Translations under genes and position numbers: made by a program
Source: an uncultured Peptoniphilus sp.
GTDB taxonomy: Bacteria; Bacillota; Clostridia; Tissierellales; Peptoniphilaceae
NCBI RefSeq assembly: GCF_946222045.1
Contig: NZ_CAMILN010000001.1
Location: forward strand, 46,892 to 110,891
Length of the DNA stretch: 64,000 nucleotides
Reading direction: 5' to 3'
The notes under the pieces: generated by a model
What the model was told of the DNA's origin: nothing
The model's database searches: none
Seen by the model: the letters and a program-made list of their open reading frames with translations, nothing else
Shown: one piece after another, positions 5,488 through 55,153 of the stretch
How positions within the stretch are numbered: position 1 is the stretch's first letter
How the letters are laid out: each line of letters begins with the position of its first letter

Positions 5488-7284
5488 TTAATCCTTTATA
5501 ATTGTCCCATGATTATCTGGGTCATTTGTGTTTAAAATTTTTATAGTTATATTTTTCTTGGCAACGGGATTTATGGCATCTTCTTGATAAACTTGGGCTC
5601 CCTCCCCAATTATTTCCTTTAATTCCGTGTAGGAAAGCTTGTCAATAGTCTTGGCATCTGGGTCACTGTTGGGGTCTGATGTCATAATTCCATTTACGTC
5701 AGTCCAGTTCTCGTAGACTTTGGAGTCAAGGGCATAGGCAATTAGGCTGCCTGTATAATCGCTACCTCCCCTAGTGAAGGTCACAATATTTCCCTTCTCG
5801 TCGCTACCATAAAAGCCTGGAACAACTGCCTTTTTGTTTTCTCCAATGTGACTTTGGATGGCCCTCTTGGACTTTTCTATATCAACTTGTCCCCTTTCAT
5901 CAAAGATTATTAGGTCCTTGGCATCAATAAAGTCGTAGGTCAAGTATTTTGCAAGTAACTTGGCATTAAGGTATTCGCCCCTGGACACAATGAAGTCCTT
6001 GTCCCTGGACTCCTTTATCTCATCAAAAACAAATTTCAACTCATCATCCCAAAAGTCTTCAAGATCCAGGTCTTGAGCTATGGATAAAAATCTCTTTTTA
6101 ATTTTCTCTACTTGCTTGTCACGGCTTAGACTTTGGACTTCTAATTCCTCTTCAAGGGACTTGATAATCTCTCTGACCTCTTCAATCCTCAAATTTTTGT
6201 CAGAAAGAGAAATCAATTCGTCAGTAATCTTTGTGTCCTTTTTAAATCTTCTTCCCGGTGCAGAAACCACAATCACGTCCCTATCTTCCTTGGAAAAGAT
6301 AATTTTTTTCACCTTGGCAAATTGCCCTGCGTCCTTCAGGGAGCTGCCGCCAAATTTTGAAACTGACTTCCCCTCAATGCTATCAATGGCAAAGGGTGTT
6401 TCTTGGTAGACGCAGTAGTTGAGCCAGTTAGAGAAGAAGAGATTGCCTGCAGACCTCCACCTAATTTTTATGTCCTTCTTATGGTCGTTGTCCTCATAAT
6501 AATTTATTGGTGGACTGATTTTTTTGCCTTGAGAAAGATCCCTGATGTACTCATTGTGGAGGGTGTCTTTGTCATATTCCCAGTGGCCAAAATTAAAGAC
6601 AAAGCGGTTGTCCTTAGTTGTCACAAGGGAAACTCCAGTGTCAGGTCTTGCTGCAAGGACTTCAAGGTCTGAAAAGTCTTCAAAATCTTCAAGGTCAACG
6701 TAAGTGTGTCTTGATGTTGGGACCAAGAAGCTGTCATCAAATCCCTTGACAATCTTATTATCTTTTAGTTTGTCAAATTCAAAAACTCCAAAGATTTTCT
6801 CGTCGCTAAGCTTGTGCTCAATCTTGTAGTAGTGATATAGGGCCGCTTGGGCAGACCAACATATAAACATTGTGGAATAAACATTTTTCTTGGCAAATTC
6901 AAAAATTATCTTTAGTTCGTCCCAATATTTTATCTTTTCATAGGCAAGGGTTTCAATAGGGGCCCCAGTAATTATCATGGCGTCGTACTTATTGTTTTTT
7001 ATATCGTCATAAGTCTTGTAAAAAGACTTCAACCTCTTGGCATCGGAGTTATTTGGATTGTAGGACTCCATCCTCACAAGGTCAATGTTAATTTGTAGGG
7101 CAGTGTTTGAAAGCATCCTCAAGAGTTGAAGTTCAGTTTCTTCCTTCTTGGGCATCAAGTTTACAATAGCAATGCTAAGGGGTCTTATGTCCTGCTTAAT
7201 GGCAGAGGAGTCCCTCATTGTAAAAATATTTTCTCTCTCTAAAACTTCTTCAACAATTAAATCTCTAGGTATTATTAATGGCAT
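5488..7284 (-). CDS. metA: Fusion protein: homoserine O-acyltransferase (MetA) N-terminal domain + aspartokinase catalytic domain lacking ACT regulatory domains
   Basis: Start moved to ATG at 7284 (MPLIIPRDLIVEE), which has RBS AAAGAGGAG upstream. The ORF-track start at 7425 would read through the T-box leader. The N-terminal ~300 aa carry MetA motifs (AIVNLMPKK, ITGAPIE, CWSAQAALYHYY). The C-terminal ~300 aa carry amino-acid-kinase motifs (KFGGSSL, VVSAPG, FTRGGSDYTGS, TDVNGIMTSDPN). The protein ends where aspartokinases normally continue into ACT domains. Confidence 0.75.
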   Translation of the reverse strand: MPLIIPRDLIVEEVLERENIFTMRDSSAIKQDIRPLSIAIVNLMPKKEETELQLLRMLSNTALQINIDLVRMESYNPNNSDAKRLKSFYKTYDDIKNNKYDAMIITGAPIETLAYEKIKYWDELKIIFEFAKKNVYSTMFICWSAQAALYHYYKIEHKLSDEKIFGVFEFDKLKDNKIVKGFDDSFLVPTSRHTYVDLEDFEDFSDLEVLAARPDTGVSLVTTKDNRFVFNFGHWEYDKDTLHNEYIRDLSQGKKISPPINYYEDNDHKKDIKIRWRSAGNLFFSNWLNYCVYQETPFAIDSIEGKSVSKFGGSSLKDAGQFAKVKKIIFSKEDRDVIVVSAPGRRFKKDTKITDELISLSDKNLRIEEVREIIKSLEEELEVQSLSRDKQVEKIKKRFLSIAQDLDLEDFWDDELKFVFDEIKESRDKDFIVSRGEYLNAKLLAKYLTYDFIDAKDLIIFDERGQVDIEKSKRAIQSHIGENKKAVVPGFYGSDEKGNIVTFTRGGSDYTGSLIAYALDSKVYENWTDVNGIMTSDPNSDPDAKTIDKLSYTELKEIIGEGAQVYQEDAINPVAKKNITIKILNTNDPDNHGTIIKD

Positions 7285-7289
7285 TTTTA

Positions 7290-7576
7290 TTCTCCTCTTT
7301 TTTATTTGTACTTGAGGAAGGAAAACAATAAAAAAAGCTTCCATCCCTAAAGGACGAAAGCTATTTCGTGTTACCACCTTAATTCTCTTCCAACTCGCGA
7401 TGGAAGACTCTTCAAGTACTATCATACTCTATCGCTGTAACGGGCGCGCCCGTGCCTATCTAAATATCGATAGACCCTCAAGAAGGACCATGTTCTCCCA
7501 ATCTTCCTCTACTTCTCTCACCAAACGAAGCTCTCTTTAATCAGTCAAGAAGGATACTCTTCCTCTTATTGAGTTA
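7290..7576 (-). promoter_or_regulatory. T-box riboswitch leader of the metA-aspartokinase fusion; candidate specifier AUG (Met)
   Basis: Minus-strand RNA contains an AGAGA box, a distal stem-I hairpin, and the T-box core GAAUUAAGGUGGUAACACG (consensus AAUUAGGGUGGUACCGCG). An overlapping terminator GCUUUCGUCC...GGGAUGGAAGC + UUUUUUU follows, 5 nt before the RBS. AUG followed by a purine lies in the stem-I region (GAACAUGGUCC). Confidence 0.6.
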
Positions 7577-7585
7577 TTTTCCATT

Positions 7586-7614
7586 ATAATAGCACCAAAA
7601 AACCTTAATGTCAA
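7586..7614 (-). promoter_or_regulatory. Sigma-A-type promoter driving the metA T-box leader
   Basis: Minus strand TTGACA-17 nt-TATTAT. Confidence 0.5.
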
Positions 7615-7654
7615 TTGCAAAAACCTTGTGATTCTTTTAATTTTAACAAGCTTA

Positions 7655-7895
7655 TAGTTTTTTATGACTTAATAAATTATTAGGGTTTTTTTCTTATCTC
7701 TAAGTCAATTATTTTTTATGACCTTATAAATTTCTATCACTTAATATATTTTTATCACTTCATATTTCTTTATAACTTAAGATTTTCTCATTACTTCATA
7801 TATTTTTATCATTTCATAATTTCTTCTCAAGTCATAAAATCTTATCACTTTATATTTTTTTAAACTTATAAATATTTACAAGTTTCAAATTTTAC
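7655..7895. repeat. Array of ~11 degenerate 18-bp tandem repeats (core TTTTTATGACYT / TTTTATCACTT)
   Basis: Successive units read tttttatgacttaataaat, tttttatgaccttataaat, ttctatcacttaatatat, ttttatcacttcatattt, ctttataacttaagattt, tctcattacttcatatat, ttttatcatttcataatt... in non-coding DNA between citF and the metA leader. Confidence 0.6.
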
Positions 7896-7928
7896 GCAAA
7901 AAAGAGAGGCTCTTGCCTCCCTTTCATT
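7896..7928 (-). terminator. Terminator of citF / cit operon
   Basis: GC-rich hairpin GGGAGGC...GCCTCTC followed by TTTTTTG on the minus strand, just downstream of the citF stop. Confidence 0.55.
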
Positions 7929-28462: not shown

Positions 28463-28487
28463 TGTAGCTTTTTATAAATTTTAAATT

Positions 28488-28589
28488 TTATCCACAATTT
28501 TCATTTTTTATCTACATTTGTAGATTAATATCCACTTTTTTATAAATATCTATGAAATTTTTTCTCTAATTTCTTTTTATTTATCCACA
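28488..28589 (+). promoter_or_regulatory. Cluster of DnaA boxes in a convergent intergenic region
   Basis: Perfect TTATCCACA at 28488-28496 and 28581-28589. One-mismatch TTATCTACA at 28508-28516. Weaker copies tgtagatta (28518-28526, opposite orientation) and ATATCCACT (28528-28536). Confidence 0.5.
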
Positions 28590-28700
28590 ATTATATTATT
28601 TTTTAATTTTCAAATAAAAAAGACTCCGTAAAACGAAGTCTTTATCACACTTTGATGGGATTTTATAAAATTTTCCAGGAAAATCTTTTTAATTAATTTT

Positions 28701-29561
28701 TTAATTTTCTTCCAATATTTTTTTCCACTTGTCTAAACTTTCTAATTCTTCTTTTGAAAGTTCAGGGTATTTTGGATCCATTTCCTTTAAATTTTCTAAG
28801 ATAACTTCTGAGACAAGGTATCTTGAGAACCACTTTCTGTCAGCTGGCACAATGTACCAAGGAGCAATTTTGGTAGAAGTGTTAATGAGCATATCTTCAT
28901 AGGCCTTCATGTAATCATCAAAATACTTCCTCTCTGTTATGTCTGAAGATGCAAATTTCCAATTTTTTTCTGGCCTTTCAATTCTCTCCATAAGTCTTTC
29001 TTTTTGCTCTTCTTTAGAAACATGGAGGAAAAATTTTACAATTTTTATTCCATTATTTGAAATATACTCTTCAAAATTGTTTATTTCTTCAAATCTTTTT
29101 TCCCATATATCCTTAGTTACTAAGTTTTTTGGGAAGGGTTGATCTAGGACTAAATTGTGAACTCTTGATACAAGGACATCTTCATAATGACTCCTGTTAA
29201 ATATCCCAATCTCTCCACGAGGAGGTAGGTCTTTTGCTACCCTCCAAAGATAATCATGATCCAACTCATTTTCACTTGGCTTTTTAAAAGAAACAACTTT
29301 TGTACCCTGTGGATTTATTCCAGTCATTATATTTTTTATTAGAGAATCTTTGCCAGCAGCATCCATAGCTTGAAGAACAATTAAAAGCGATTGATTGTTT
29401 TCAGCATAAAGTTTTTCTTGATACTCACGCATTTTTATAATATTGGCAGGTATCAATTTATCTTTTACCTCATCTTTTTCAAGTTTTCCATTGTATGAAG
29501 TTGGAACCTCATATAAGTTTAGCTTTTTCTTTTCTTTAACTAAATATTTTTCAGTTTTCAT
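28701..29561 (-). CDS. ppk2: Polyphosphate kinase 2 family protein (polyphosphate:nucleotide phosphotransferase)
   Basis: Walker A AMDAAGKDS plus PPK2 motif FNRSHYEDVL, 286 aa. Confidence 0.8.
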   Translation of the reverse strand: MKTEKYLVKEKKKLNLYEVPTSYNGKLEKDEVKDKLIPANIIKMREYQEKLYAENNQSLLIVLQAMDAAGKDSLIKNIMTGINPQGTKVVSFKKPSENELDHDYLWRVAKDLPPRGEIGIFNRSHYEDVLVSRVHNLVLDQPFPKNLVTKDIWEKRFEEINNFEEYISNNGIKIVKFFLHVSKEEQKERLMERIERPEKNWKFASSDITERKYFDDYMKAYEDMLINTSTKIAPWYIVPADRKWFSRYLVSEVILENLKEMDPKYPELSKEELESLDKWKKILEEN

Positions 29562-30334
29562 TAAAATTTACCCACTTCCTTAGAAAATTTAATGGCTTCT
29601 TCCAGCATTTGAGTTGTTATTTGGTGGTAGGTCATGTCAAAAAGTTTAAAGCCCAAAAGTTTTTTGTCCTCATAAACTTTTTCAATTTCCTTGACAAAGG
29701 ACTCTTGGCCAGCTGGGTCTATTACATCATCATTTTTACCGTTGAAAAGAACAATAGGCCTATCCTTAAAGGCCTCTGGACTATCCATTGGGTCCATGTC
29801 TAGGAAAAATTCGTTAATCCTAAATTCTCTCTCGTCAATATTGTCCTTATTTTTAAGTTCATTAACACCACGCACAAGTTCTTCCCAATTGTTTATTCCG
29901 TTAAAGACAAAGGCCATCTTTAGGTCCTTCTTAAAGGCATAAAGGCCTCCAGCAGTAATGGCACCCATGGAGTGACCACCAACTGCGACTTCATTTCCTG
30001 GATAATTTTCTTCAATGTAGTTAAAGATAGAAGGAGCTTCCTCTATGTTGTGCATAATTACCTTTAAAATATATTTTCCTTCAACAGCCTCGTCTTCGTG
30101 GTCATTCTTTTCCACATTCCTCTCACCATGGTATCTGGCTTCTGGGAGGACGACCCTGTAGCCATAGGCTGCAAAAATATTTCCCCTAAAGATTTGACTT
30201 TCATTGTCTGATCCCCAACCGTGATAAAATACTAGGGTCTTATTTGTCTCTTCTTTCGGTTCAATTATCACTGCAGGGACTTTACCTATCATAACTTCTT
30301 TTATATCTGAATAGCTTGTTTTTAAATACTCCAT
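29561..30334 (-). CDS. Alpha/beta-fold hydrolase (serine esterase/peptidase-like)
   Basis: Nucleophile elbow GHSMGA. Stop overlaps the ppk2 start. Confidence 0.65.
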   Translation of the reverse strand: MEYLKTSYSDIKEVMIGKVPAVIIEPKEETNKTLVFYHGWGSDNESQIFRGNIFAAYGYRVVLPEARYHGERNVEKNDHEDEAVEGKYILKVIMHNIEEAPSIFNYIEENYPGNEVAVGGHSMGAITAGGLYAFKKDLKMAFVFNGINNWEELVRGVNELKNKDNIDEREFRINEFFLDMDPMDSPEAFKDRPIVLFNGKNDDVIDPAGQESFVKEIEKVYEDKKLLGFKLFDMTYHQITTQMLEEAIKFSKEVGKF

Positions 30335-30469
30335 AATTCACCTCTCTTCCATTATAGCAAAGAAAAGAAAAAGATTTTAGCAAGGTTTACTTTCTTTTAT
30401 TTTTAGTATTTATGGATTCTGTATTTTTTAATTTATAAATTTTGTGAATTGATAAACTCTTGCAAACTC

Positions 30470-30685
30470 TTAACTTTTTGTGACTTCTTATTTTCTTATG
30501 ACCTAGAAGTTTTTTATAGCTTTATATTTTTTTAAGACTTCTCATTTTAATATGACCTTAGAAATATTTGTGACTTCACAGTTTTTTATGAACTTGAAAA
30601 TTTTTATGATTTTACAAATTTTTATAATCTTATACTTTATTACAAAGTCAATTTTTTTATGAAAATTCAAAAAATTTGGACAAGA
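30470..30685. repeat. Second array of ~11 degenerate 18-bp tandem repeats, same family as 7655-7895
   Basis: Units ctttttgtgacttcttat, tttcttatgacctagaag, ttttttatagctttatat, ttttaagacttctcattt, taatatgaccttagaaat, atttgtgacttcacag, ttttttatgaacttgaaaa, tttttatgattttacaaa, tttttataatcttatact... Confidence 0.55.
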
Positions 30686-30712
30686 AAAAAGCAAGGAATA
30701 ATTTCCCTGCTT
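30683..30712 (-). terminator. Terminator of ung
   Basis: GCAGGGAAATTATTCCTTGC hairpin plus T-run on the minus strand. Confidence 0.5.
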
Positions 30713-30721
30713 AAATCTTTA

Positions 30722-31393
30722 TTATTTAATTTCCCAAGTTGGAGGTGTGACTCCATTTTCTTTTAAAAATTCATTGGCTCTTGAGAAGGGCCTTGATCCA
30801 AAAAATCCTCTCGATGCTGAAAGTGGTGATGGATGAACTCCTTCTATTATGAGGTGGTTGCCAGGTTTTATAAATTTCTTACGAGCCTTGGCATGATTGC
30901 CCCAGAGTATAAAAACTACTGGATCTTTCTTCTCGCTAATTTTTTCTATGACTGCGTTGGTGAAGATCTCCCATCCAATTTTTGAGTGGCTCATGGGTTG
31001 GTGAGCCCTAACTGTTAGGGTGGTGTTAAGAAGCATTATCCCCTGGTCTGCCCATGATTTTAAGTAACCTGTTTGTGGAATTTCTAAGCCTAAGTCAGAA
31101 TTTAGTTCCTTGTAAATATTTCTAAGTGAGGGTGGAATTGCCACACCTTCCTTGACAGAAAAGGCAAGTCCATGAGCCTGGCCCACATTGTGGTAGGGGT
31201 CCTGACCCAAAATCAAAACCTCTAGGTCCTTGTAAGAAGTGTAGTGAAAGGCATTAAAAATATCTTGAGCCTTTGGAAATATTTCATAATTTTTATATTC
31301 TTCAATTAAAAGTTTTCTAAGGTCCTTGTAGTAGTCCTTTTCAAACTCTTCTTCCAAAATGTCTTGCCAATCATTTTTTAAAATTTCTTTCAC
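30722..31393 (-). CDS. ung: Uracil-DNA glycosylase, family 1
   Basis: Motifs GQDPYHNVGQAHGLAFSV and HPSPLSA. Start reassigned to GTG 31393 (GGAGGT 6 nt upstream), which removes the 20-nt overlap with trkA implied by the track start. Confidence 0.88.
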   Translation of the reverse strand: MKEILKNDWQDILEEEFEKDYYKDLRKLLIEEYKNYEIFPKAQDIFNAFHYTSYKDLEVLILGQDPYHNVGQAHGLAFSVKEGVAIPPSLRNIYKELNSDLGLEIPQTGYLKSWADQGIMLLNTTLTVRAHQPMSHSKIGWEIFTNAVIEKISEKKDPVVFILWGNHAKARKKFIKPGNHLIIEGVHPSPLSASRGFFGSRPFSRANEFLKENGVTPPTWEIK

Positions 31394-31397
31394 AAAA

Positions 31398-32765
31398 TTA
31401 CCTCCTGAAGAAGTCAAAGATACTCTTCTTTAGACTTGGGTCGATTAGCTCTTCAAGTTCCTTCCTACTTTCATTAGTAGAGAAGATGACAAGCCTGTCG
31501 CCCTTTTCAATTTTTGTATTTCCCCTTGGGATAACTGCTGAGTTGTCGTACCTAATTATCCCACCAATAATAATTTCCTTGTGGAGATTGATTTCCGAAA
31601 GCTTCTTGCCAATGTAGACAAAGTCGTCTGGAATTTTTATTTCATAAACTTGGGCCTTGCCGCCAAACATATAGTTGATTGAAACCTTCATGTCAGTGTT
31701 TATTGCCTTGATGATTTCGTTGGCAACTATGACCTTGGGATCAATGATCCTATAAATTCCAAGACTCTCCAAGATTGTGTCGTAGTTATTGTCCTTTTGA
31801 ATGATAATATTTTTTGCAATCCCATGACTTCTTGCAAGTAGTCCAAGGACAATATTTAGTTCATCAGAGTCTGTCATAGATATAAATACGATCTCCTTAG
31901 AAATACCTTCTTCTTTAAAAATCTTGTCGTTCCTAAGTTTTTTATTAACTACAAAGGCCCTGCTTATATTTCTCCTATATTTTTCAAATTTTTCCTTGTC
32001 TGGTTCAAGAATTTTTAAATTTATATTTTCAAGATTTGAGATAATCCTGTTGAAGTTGTAATCTCCCGACGCAATTACAACCTCTCTCTCCTCTTCCTTT
32101 TCCTTGATTCCAAAGTGGGCATGCTTGAAATTTCTAATGTCAAAGGAAAGACCCATAAGGTAAATGTAGTCGCCAGACTTTAGGACAGTTTCTCCATCAG
32201 GTACAATTAAGTCCCCCTCTCTTAGGATGCCAACAACAAGGATTGTAGAAAGAGACCCAATGTCCTTTATCTTTTGATTTTCAAATTCCTCATCCATGTC
32301 AATGTAGTGGCCTGTGACTTCTATCTTGCCCTTGCCAAAGTAGTCTGCCTCATAATATTCCGTAGACCCAATTAACTTGGTCACAAGTTTTGCAGTTTCA
32401 AGGCTTAAATTAAATACATTCACAACATTTGGAAGAGAATTTTTTATAATTCCTATTTCAGAAATATTTTCCATTTCATCAAGACGAAGAATTATTTTTA
32501 CATCTAGTCCCTTAAAGATTGATGCCATTATTAGGTTAGTCTTGTCGCTATCTGTTGCTATAATGGCGTAGTCGTACTTATTAAGATCATGGTTAATAAC
32601 AAATTCTTCTTCCAAGACGTCTGCCCTTATTTTATTTACGCTATCTGTTATCTCTTCAAAGTTTTTTTCGTCCCTATCCACTAGATCAACTTCATATTTT
32701 TCAAGACTCAAGGCCTTGGCAATAGTTGAACCAACCTTTCCAGAACCTATAATTAAAATCTTCAT
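31398..32765 (-). CDS. trkA: Trk/Ktr K+ uptake regulatory protein with two RCK (NAD-binding) modules
   Basis: MKILIIGSGKVGSTIAKAL Rossmann start, repeated at mid-protein. 455 aa. Confidence 0.85.
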   Translation of the reverse strand: MKILIIGSGKVGSTIAKALSLEKYEVDLVDRDEKNFEEITDSVNKIRADVLEEEFVINHDLNKYDYAIIATDSDKTNLIMASIFKGLDVKIILRLDEMENISEIGIIKNSLPNVVNVFNLSLETAKLVTKLIGSTEYYEADYFGKGKIEVTGHYIDMDEEFENQKIKDIGSLSTILVVGILREGDLIVPDGETVLKSGDYIYLMGLSFDIRNFKHAHFGIKEKEEEREVVIASGDYNFNRIISNLENINLKILEPDKEKFEKYRRNISRAFVVNKKLRNDKIFKEEGISKEIVFISMTDSDELNIVLGLLARSHGIAKNIIIQKDNNYDTILESLGIYRIIDPKVIVANEIIKAINTDMKVSINYMFGGKAQVYEIKIPDDFVYIGKKLSEINLHKEIIIGGIIRYDNSAVIPRGNTKIEKGDRLVIFSTNESRKELEELIDPSLKKSIFDFFRR

Positions 32766-53237: not shown

Positions 53238-53581
53238 TGGTGGAGGCGGTGGGAGTCGAACCCACGTCCGAAGACCTCTTACAGAAAGATTCTCCGAGTG
53301 CAGACTCCTCTTTAGTTTTCCCCTGTATTACTAGAGTGTCAAACTCATACAGGGTATCGCCATAAACCCCCTCTGCTATGACGCATCACAGAGTTCGTTT
53401 GCCCGCTAATTTGAAACCCGGTTGCAGATCGCGGTGTCTGGCCGGATTGCTACCTAATTAGGCAGCTAGTGCGAAATTATTTTCGTCGTTTATTTTTTAA
53501 TAGACCATTTTTACGTTGTGTGATCCATCAACGACTCGCTACTTTAAGCTCAAAATCCCCGTCGAAACCATTTTCGCCCCC
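53238..53581 (-). ncRNA. ssrA: tmRNA (transfer-messenger RNA)
   Basis: Minus-strand RNA starts GGGGGCGAAAAUGGUUUCGACGGGG and ends GGACGUGGGUUCGACUCCCACCGCCUCCACCA, a tRNA-Ala-like acceptor/T-arm. Internal tag reading frame ...GAC GAA AAU AAU UUC GCA CUA GCU GCC UAA (…DENNFALAA*) is followed by UUAGG as in known tmRNAs. Confidence 0.9.
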
Positions 53582-55076: not shown

Positions 55077-55153
55077 CGGGGTGTAGCGCAGTTTGGTAGC
55101 GCACGTGGTTTGGGACCATGGGGCCGGGGGTTCGAATCCTCTCACCCCGACCA
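55077..55153 (+). tRNA. tRNA-Pro (anticodon UGG)
   Basis: Cloverleaf: acceptor CGGGGTG/CACCCCG, D-arm GCGC-AGTTTGGTA-GCGC, anticodon arm CGTGG-TTTGGGA-CCATG, T-loop TTCGAAT, encoded CCA. Confidence 0.93.

Follow-up and report, generated by a model that had tools for sequence, protein, structure and literature searches.

The 18-bp tandem repeats that lie upstream of the hydrolase-ppk2 operon of an uncultured Peptoniphilus belong to a family of tandem arrays (A1-A5) with a degenerate 18-bp unit, which is dispersed and lineage-restricted within the Peptoniphilus harei/vaginalis group. The descriptive part of this finding is secure: the arrays are inserted beside terminators, in the spacers between a terminator and a promoter. 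The family is real and previously undescribed, a literature search having found no description of these repeats, and it combines hints of function and an association with leader-controlled promoters with a credible neutral alternative. The reading preferred here, with a probability of roughly 0.4, is that the arrays are binding sites for a sequence-specific protein that would coat the DNA cooperatively and serve as an insulator or as an upstream modulator.

The window, that is, the whole stretch of 64,000 nucleotides that was analysed, comes from an organism of the P. harei group. Its hydrolase is 96% identical to the protein of P. harei NCTC13076, and proteins identical to it are present on contigs from human skin metagenomes. 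The array upstream of the hydrolase gene and its surroundings consist of the following features.

30438-30689, plus strand: array A2, about 14 slots of 18 bp, with 11 clear units by position-weight matrix (PWM) and two or three degenerate in-register slots
30689-30712, minus strand: intrinsic terminator of ung, AAGCAGGGAAATTATTCCTTGCTT followed by a T-run; A2 abuts the T-tract
30722-31417, minus strand: ung (UDG)
30351-30359, minus strand: extended -10 element TGcTATAAT of the hydrolase-ppk2 promoter, read from the sequence, about 80 bp from the proximal end of A2
28701-30334, minus strand: downstream operon, with the alpha/beta hydrolase gene (29561-30334) and PPK2 (28701-29561), by Pfam

The first-pass annotation had described about 11 copies at 30470-30685, upstream of the hydrolase and PPK2 genes and downstream of ung. 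The array is indeed there, with 11 clear units, and is slightly longer than described, reaching from about 30438 to 30689 with its 14 or so slots. The gene context is confirmed by protein families, which give the minus-strand order TrkH, TrkA, ung, A2, alpha/beta hydrolase and PPK2. The units run head to tail with a strict 18-bp period, for which Tandem Repeats Finder gives a period of 18 and a higher order of 36 bp. The self-identity of the array is 0.60 at a lag of 18 versus 0.33 at other lags (z of about 6). On the plus strand the unit of both A2 and A1 reads aTTTTTATGACTTtATAa, corresponding to AAGTCATAAAAA on the sense strand of the downstream gene. It is AT-rich and stop-rich in every frame, with a single chance open reading frame of 50 aa; the A+T content of the arrays is 75-83%, and most units contain a run of five or six T.

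Further features of the window were recorded alongside. The spacer towards which a rubredoxin gene and PPK2 converge holds a cluster of DnaA boxes (28480-28600). The cluster comprises two of the three perfect TTATCCACA boxes of the whole window, one box with a single mismatch and further near-matches within about 100 bp. This cluster is not an oriC, because there is no GC-skew switch. A tmRNA gene is located at 53238-53581 (minus strand, 168 bits) and a tRNA gene at 55077-55150 (plus strand).

Within the 64-kb window, 18-bp periodicity stands out only at A2 and at 7692-7853, which lies inside the second array, A1 (self-identity of 0.68 versus 0.37). Degenerate patterns spanning three units match only inside A1 and A2 in the window and give no match in 100 shuffles. 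The A1 locus is composed as follows.

7640-7889, plus strand: array A1, of the same family and in the same orientation as A2, about 14 slots with 12 clear units and a 54-bp (3-unit) higher-order repeat
7898-7922, minus strand: intrinsic terminator of citF, read from the sequence, with a detected hairpin; A1 begins about 8 bp past its T-tract
7586-7614, minus strand: promoter of the metA-aspartokinase gene, TTGACA-17-TGcTATTAT, 11 of 12 matches and with the TG; 26-44 bp from the proximal end of A1
7347-7578, minus strand: T-box leader of the metA-aspartokinase fusion gene (Rfam RF00230, 94.2 bits)

Citrate lyase genes, the last of which is citF, precede A1, and the metA-aspartokinase fusion gene (HTS-AA_kinase) follows it. 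Both arrays start 0-15 bp from the T-tract of the intrinsic terminator of the upstream gene, and both occupy promoter-proximal intergenic spacers, in agreement with the location claimed for them earlier. At the same locus, the mechanically called 645-aa open reading frame at 5488-7425 overlaps the T-box leader; the true start of metA-aspartokinase is the ATG at 7284, which has AGGAG in front of it and gives a protein of 598 aa. In two other lineages (L283 and L302), this gene has other neighbours, namely a PALP gene on its upstream side and PPK2 on its downstream side, and in L283 a DnaA box precedes its promoter.

The first-pass annotation also held that the two arrays form one repeat family rather than a chance resemblance, and proposed an alignment of their units. 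This alignment bears the claim out. Units of A1 and A2 have 10-14 of 18 bases in common, much as units of one array do among themselves (about 10.5-11 of 18), and this similarity is far above the AT-rich background. The units are about 60% alike, equally within and between arrays. When A1 and A2 were compared for collinearity, as expected of copies of a whole element, no register stood out. The similarity of units is also flat with distance, adjacent units being no closer to each other than distant ones. Such a lack of decay fits units that are held near a consensus. The best-kept positions of this consensus are A10, T13, A17 and T2-T6.

Extension past the window and into related genomes revealed three more arrays, listed here with the leader RNAs found near two of them.

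L288:20840-21110: array A3, about 14 slots, in P. harei, upstream of a CIRCE-controlled cbpA/dnaJ-like gene
L294:19134-19270, also in L295 and L298: array A4, 7-8 units with a 36-bp higher order, directly after a terminator
L294:19432-19601, plus strand: lysine riboswitch
L298:12023-12185: array A5, 9-10 units, in P. vaginalis, abutting a terminator and upstream of a SAM-riboswitch-led gene
L298:11840-11926, minus strand: SAM riboswitch

A scan with a periodic PWM of five units covered 570 kb of Peptoniphilus loci, many of them redundant. It returned the five clear arrays A1-A5, two weak matches and one unrelated metagenome repeat, and no arrays in loci of the P. senegalensis, P. gorbachii or AGMB00490 type. 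In public collections, what the first two degenerate 3-unit patterns matched were repeats in giant viruses and AT-rich phages, perfect ones of 9 or 18 bp that are probably coding. After A15 and A17 had been added to the pattern, those matches were gone and one viral match was left. The refined pattern gave 12 loci in a metagenome scan, the real one being L281 only, an orthologue of A1.

The five arrays share a general placement. They are composed of 7-14 units, spanning about 130-250 bp, with A1, A2 and A3 nearly equal in length at about 14 slots. All lie between co-directional genes, 3' of a terminator and 5' of a promoter. The arrays occupy untranscribed spacer; the distance to the T-tract of the terminator is usually 0-20 bp, and the distance to the promoter ranges from 26 to 100 bp. 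For example, A4 lies about 100 bp upstream of the promoter that serves the lysine riboswitch and the gene of an amino-acid-binding protein. Read in the direction of the downstream gene, the units of A1 and A2 have the form AAGTCATAAAAA, and those of A3-A5 run the other way. The genes downstream are functionally unrelated and include hydrolase/PPK2, metA-aspartokinase, cbpA-clpB, an amino-acid transporter and a 100-aa protein.

At three of the five loci, the array is located upstream of a promoter for the leader RNA of an aspartate-family amino-acid gene. These T-box, lysine and SAM leaders are the only cis-regulatory leaders that Rfam detects in the window, L288, L294 and L298. The association of leaders and arrays has a Fisher p of about 0.002 (three of three leaders versus two of about 31 other promoter spacers), a rough and post-hoc value.

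The surroundings of A3 and A5 show several features of their own. The gene 3' of A3 (L288:21372-22004) encodes a DnaJ-type protein without the zinc finger, whose homologues are publicly named 'curved DNA-binding protein' (CbpA type), and its promoter carries a CIRCE-like operator (TTAGCAGACTACTTGCAAGAGTGCTAA). The 5' region of this cbpA/dnaJ-like gene contains nine or ten copies of the hexanucleotide GGAAAT in L294 (13334-13393) and about three GAAAC(G) repeats in P. harei (L288:21231-21246), possibly a variable simple repeat. A module of about 80 nt that ends in an intrinsic terminator (L288:20679-20757, minus strand) is conserved in L294:12053-12150 and L298:12185-12290 and may represent a small RNA; its Rfam matches to sroB (E = 0.014) and Ref84 (E = 0.27) are weak and below threshold. 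In the interval between CNNM and the cbpA/dnaJ-like gene (L288:20530-21372), two genes are lost in P. harei, one for a 100-aa protein with a SAM riboswitch as its leader and one for a Peptidase_C26 (GATase), both of which relatives keep (L294:11354-13510, L298:11354-13602); A3 and an array remnant lie at the borders of the deletion.

The presence of the arrays varies between relatives. A2 is found in P. harei NCTC13076 (L007) and in a gut metagenome-assembled genome (MAG; L008) with the same slots and only point changes, apart from a proximal deletion of 19 bp in L008; the slots are identical in the window, L001-L005 and L007. A2 is absent in L009-L012. In P. genitalis, P. vaginalis, another MAG and P. 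timonensis, the layout of ung, terminator, promoter and hydrolase is kept, with about 60 bp in place of the array. Orthologues of A1 occur in L018, L281, L288 and L289, with an unchanged number of units. A1 is missing in a sister lineage (L284 and L285) that shares the citF-metA synteny and has a metA-aspartokinase 87% identical; at this empty site, the terminator and the -35 element are about 55 bp apart. The absence of A1 and A2 from the same spacers in sister lineages therefore identifies them as insertions specific to the lineage of the window. A5 is absent from its site in L294, L296 and L297, and P. harei has only a partly deleted remnant of 3-4 units (L288:20560-20625), where two adjoining genes are lost. 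The empty sites contain no convincing unit, as their PWM scores of at most 10.9 correspond to background. No convincing conserved termini, inverted repeats or target duplications were found at filled and empty sites; the only feature there is the last unit of A5, which merges into a pre-existing A-run.

These empty sites bear directly on the proposal that the array regulates the hydrolase-ppk2 operon. In this scenario, A2 would be an operator array specific to that operon, as A1 would be to metA, and the protein that binds them would regulate those genes. The promoter-proximal location of the arrays speaks for it, as does the position of three of the five in front of genes controlled by Met, SAM or Lys leaders. 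However, orthologous promoters of sister species are entirely devoid of the array, and the -10 element TGcTATAAT is invariant across all relatives, array-plus or array-minus, as the ung terminator is retained in relatives without A2. The genes downstream of A1-A5 are functionally unrelated, and single-unit sites at other promoters of the window, the possible members of a wider regulon, are not above background. The CodY box (AATTTTCWGAAAATT) is not enriched either, with 19 matches in the window versus 19.9 expected and two borderline matches at the array edge. The link to this operon drawn in the first-pass annotation is thus not upheld: the empty sites and the unrelated loci, occupied in either orientation and at variable distance, suggest a dispersed insertion-type element, and an operon-specific operator is very unlikely.

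The number of units is constant between strains that are 4-6% diverged, and only the presence or absence of the whole array varies. Two independent MEGAHIT contigs from skin metagenomes, L006 and L290, end inside A2 (window position 30553) and A1 (7676), respectively, which suggests that the arrays break assemblies, through their repeats or through strain variation.

A hint of function comes from the distribution of substitutions. Between strains, A2 diverges by 8.6%, compared with 12-22% at the 4-fold sites of the flanking genes. When A1 and A2 are pooled, and with the set of conserved positions defined on the window arrays, which are one side of this strain comparison, 8 of 220 sites are substituted at the ten best-conserved positions and 26 of 176 at the other eight (Fisher p = 1e-4, or 2e-4 for A/T sites only). 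Change at the variable positions is close to neutral in rate, and at the conserved ones substitutions are 4-5 times rarer, at about a quarter of the neutral rate. The register is strict. Of 43 steps between successive PWM-positive units, 33 measure 18 bp exactly and another five measure 36 or 54 bp; the 18-bp frame is almost free of indels at about 40% divergence between units. This pattern hints at functional constraint on the units. The substitution bias could also stem from gene conversion between units or from position-specific mutability; conversion could mimic it because it alters only those positions at which units differ.

The claim that the arrays are functional elements consequently stands in part. 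The substitution bias speaks for it, but the argument that two arrays of one family must be functional is not sufficient, because a selfish or neutral dispersed repeat gives the same picture. Such a repeat would be a minisatellite, whose AT-rich unit is seeded at terminators, expands by slippage or unequal exchange and is tolerated only in untranscribed spacers. This explanation is the main rival, somewhat less probable than protein binding. It accommodates the presence/absence differences among close relatives at three sites, the remnant beside the lost genes, the range of 7-14 units in both orientations and the variable distance to promoters, and no known motif, RNA family or protein partner was found. 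The higher-order blocks of 36 and 54 bp, from which it follows that the arrays grew by block duplication, also suit such a repeat. It accounts less well for the rarity of substitutions at 10 of the 18 positions, which holds when only A/T sites are counted, and for a register that has hardly admitted an indel. Furthermore, the number of units is stable across strains, unlike that of typical variable-number repeats, neighbouring units are no more similar than distant ones, and A1, A2 and A3 have almost the same length.

The protein-binding reading is favoured on four grounds: constraint is specific to certain positions, the register is strict, the arrays do not depend on orientation, and their location is at the DNA level. 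The arrays grew in place by duplication of blocks of two or three units, after which the number of units stayed fixed and point changes fell mainly on eight of the 18 positions. According to the proposal, the constrained positions (T2-T6, A7, T8, A10, T13, A15 and A17), together with the nearly indel-free register, would mark each unit as a binding site. A sequence-specific DNA-binding protein would then coat the array cooperatively. One unit of 18 bp covers 1.7 turns of the helix, so neighbouring sites would wind around the DNA as a spiral. Coated in this way, the array may work on the DNA itself, ahead of the promoter: it could insulate a regulated promoter from the upstream terminator or form a roadblock between the two, or it could be an upstream modulator. 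The orientation, which differs between A1 and A2 on the one hand and A3-A5 on the other, would be tolerated by a site that works at the DNA level. Several observations count against the binding of a protein. No DNA-binding gene adjoins A1 or A2 by protein families, the distance to the promoter varies from array to array, and the dyad symmetry of the unit (TAT.A-NN-T.ATA) is weak and only suggestive by eye. In addition, sister lineages manage without arrays at the same promoters, so any function of the array is dispensable. The survey behind the family is also small, at about 100 kb of non-redundant genome.

An effect of the DNA itself has to be considered next to that of a bound protein. In such a case, curved or easily melted T/A tracts would boost the downstream promoter, as an extended UP element or as phased A-tracts, and no dedicated protein would be involved. 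The A+T content of the arrays, the T5-6 run in most units and the location upstream of promoters are what this explanation predicts. The phasing of the tracts is not: its resultant is 0.6-0.72 at 18 bp versus 0.13-0.61 at 10-11 bp, the latter inconsistent between arrays, and since the tracts are phased at 18 bp rather than at the helical repeat, classical curvature is not expected. In A3, only six tracts of at least four bases occur in about 14 units. The arrays stop 26-100 bp from the -35 region and not at -40 to -60, and the best-conserved positions A10, T13 and A17 lie outside the tracts. An intrinsic DNA-structure element is therefore unlikely. Promoter-like hexamers inside the arrays are not convincing either, with three in A2 against 2.6 expected and seven in A1 against 3.1.

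Many-copy short tandem direct repeats also resemble iterons and parC-type sites, which raises the question whether the arrays are left over from a site at which a plasmid or phage was replicated or partitioned, such as iterons or a centromere-like array, or whether they encode the antitoxin RNA of a type III toxin-antitoxin system. The 36-bp higher order of A2 and A4 is compatible with such an origin, and one toxIN locus is listed for P. harei (PMC3401426). However, the genes next to the arrays (ung, the hydrolase gene, PPK2, citF and metA-aspartokinase) include none of the rep, par or ToxN-like type, and no similarity to plasmids or phages emerges: blastn of A2 returned one 53-bp chance match (to a cyanobacterial plasmid) in 72,556 plasmids and none in 50,697 phages. 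A1 and A2 contain no DnaA box (TTATCCACA). Type III antitoxins (ToxI, CptI and TenpI) are composed of 1.9-5.6 repeats of 31-62 nt, followed by a terminator and then by the ToxN-type toxin gene (PMC3401426). The Peptoniphilus arrays have 7-14 copies of 18 nt, the terminator is upstream of the array rather than between array and gene, and the genes downstream are those of the hydrolase and metA, so a type III antitoxin was rejected. An RNA element in general was rejected as well. Rfam covariance models gave no match on the array (the best E was 1.7 or worse, far below the gathering scores), and neither strand folds better than its shuffles (z-scores of -0.22 and +0.27). Taken as a whole, a plasmid, phage or antitoxin origin is most improbable.

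A bolder extension of the protein-binding reading can be formulated, and it is improbable as a whole. The arrays might be loading platforms for an undescribed DNA-binding protein of the Peptoniphilaceae, which would polymerise along the 18-bp sites. The resulting coat would form a transcriptional and topological insulator just past intrinsic terminators, shielding promoters controlled by leader RNAs or operators (T-box, SAM and lysine riboswitches, CIRCE) from read-through, and the arrays would spread to new terminators by an undescribed targeted mechanism.

Skin, wound and genital microbiomes commonly contain Gram-positive anaerobic cocci such as Peptoniphilus, whose genetics is hardly studied. 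Conserved unit positions and a strict register in a dispersed cis-element would point to an unknown DNA-binding factor or a new form of promoter insulation; if the arrays are neutral, they would be a clean bacterial case of satellite-like DNA limited to terminator-promoter spacers. The arrays also mark recent genome change, in the form of insertions and of gene loss beside them, and they tell closely related lineages apart and coincide with contig ends in metagenome assemblies.

Among known repeats, MIRU of mycobacteria have units of 40-100 bp with small overlapping ORFs and are classic variable-number loci, and STAR of Staphylococcus aureus are GC-rich 14-mers about 40 bp apart. The likeness to both consists in short tandem units that code for nothing themselves and recur at numerous intergenic loci within a single lineage, between co-directional genes; here, one unit family occupies five such loci (A1-A5) in the roughly 100 kb of non-redundant P. 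harei-group sequence. The Peptoniphilus unit differs in being 18 bp long, AT-rich and constrained at specific positions, in arrays that abut terminators and that, unlike MIRU, do not vary in copy number among the strains compared. The BOX element of Streptococcus pneumoniae is modular, with boxA, a boxB repeated n times and boxC, and has a predicted RNA fold. It is likewise a dispersed intergenic element of a Gram-positive coccus, with a tandemly repeated module near promoters and terminators and insertion polymorphism between strains, whereas the Peptoniphilus arrays have no terminal modules (no flanking modules are common to three arrays) and no fold (z of about 0).

A second group of counterparts comprises arrays that work through a bound protein or through DNA shape. 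The heptad arrays of the omega protein of inc18 plasmids, ParR-parC, TubR-tubC and iterons are operator or centromere arrays to which small dimeric repressors bind cooperatively, and they lie next to the gene of their own binding protein, on plasmids or phages. They offer a model for array action, as they consist of many contiguous short repeats upstream of promoters, with strict spacing and tolerance of either orientation, and contiguous direct repeats of fixed spacing are also what is found here. The Peptoniphilus arrays, in contrast, are chromosomal, sit at unrelated housekeeping loci with no such gene nearby and no similarity to plasmids or phages, and have a period of 18 bp rather than 7-12 or 20-22 bp. 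The curved DNA with phased A-tracts in front of Gram-positive promoters, as at Clostridium perfringens plc, is comparable in that DNA rich in A/T tracts precedes a promoter of an AT-rich Firmicute, but the tracts of the Peptoniphilus arrays recur every 18 bp and not every 10.5 bp or so, in 7-14 copies instead of about three, and at a variable distance from the -35 element. None of these named families is matched in its defining features, as far as these were compared. By analogy, the closest kinds would be the interspersed minisatellites (MIRU, STAR and BOX) in terms of distribution, and the cooperative operator and centromere arrays in terms of presumed action.
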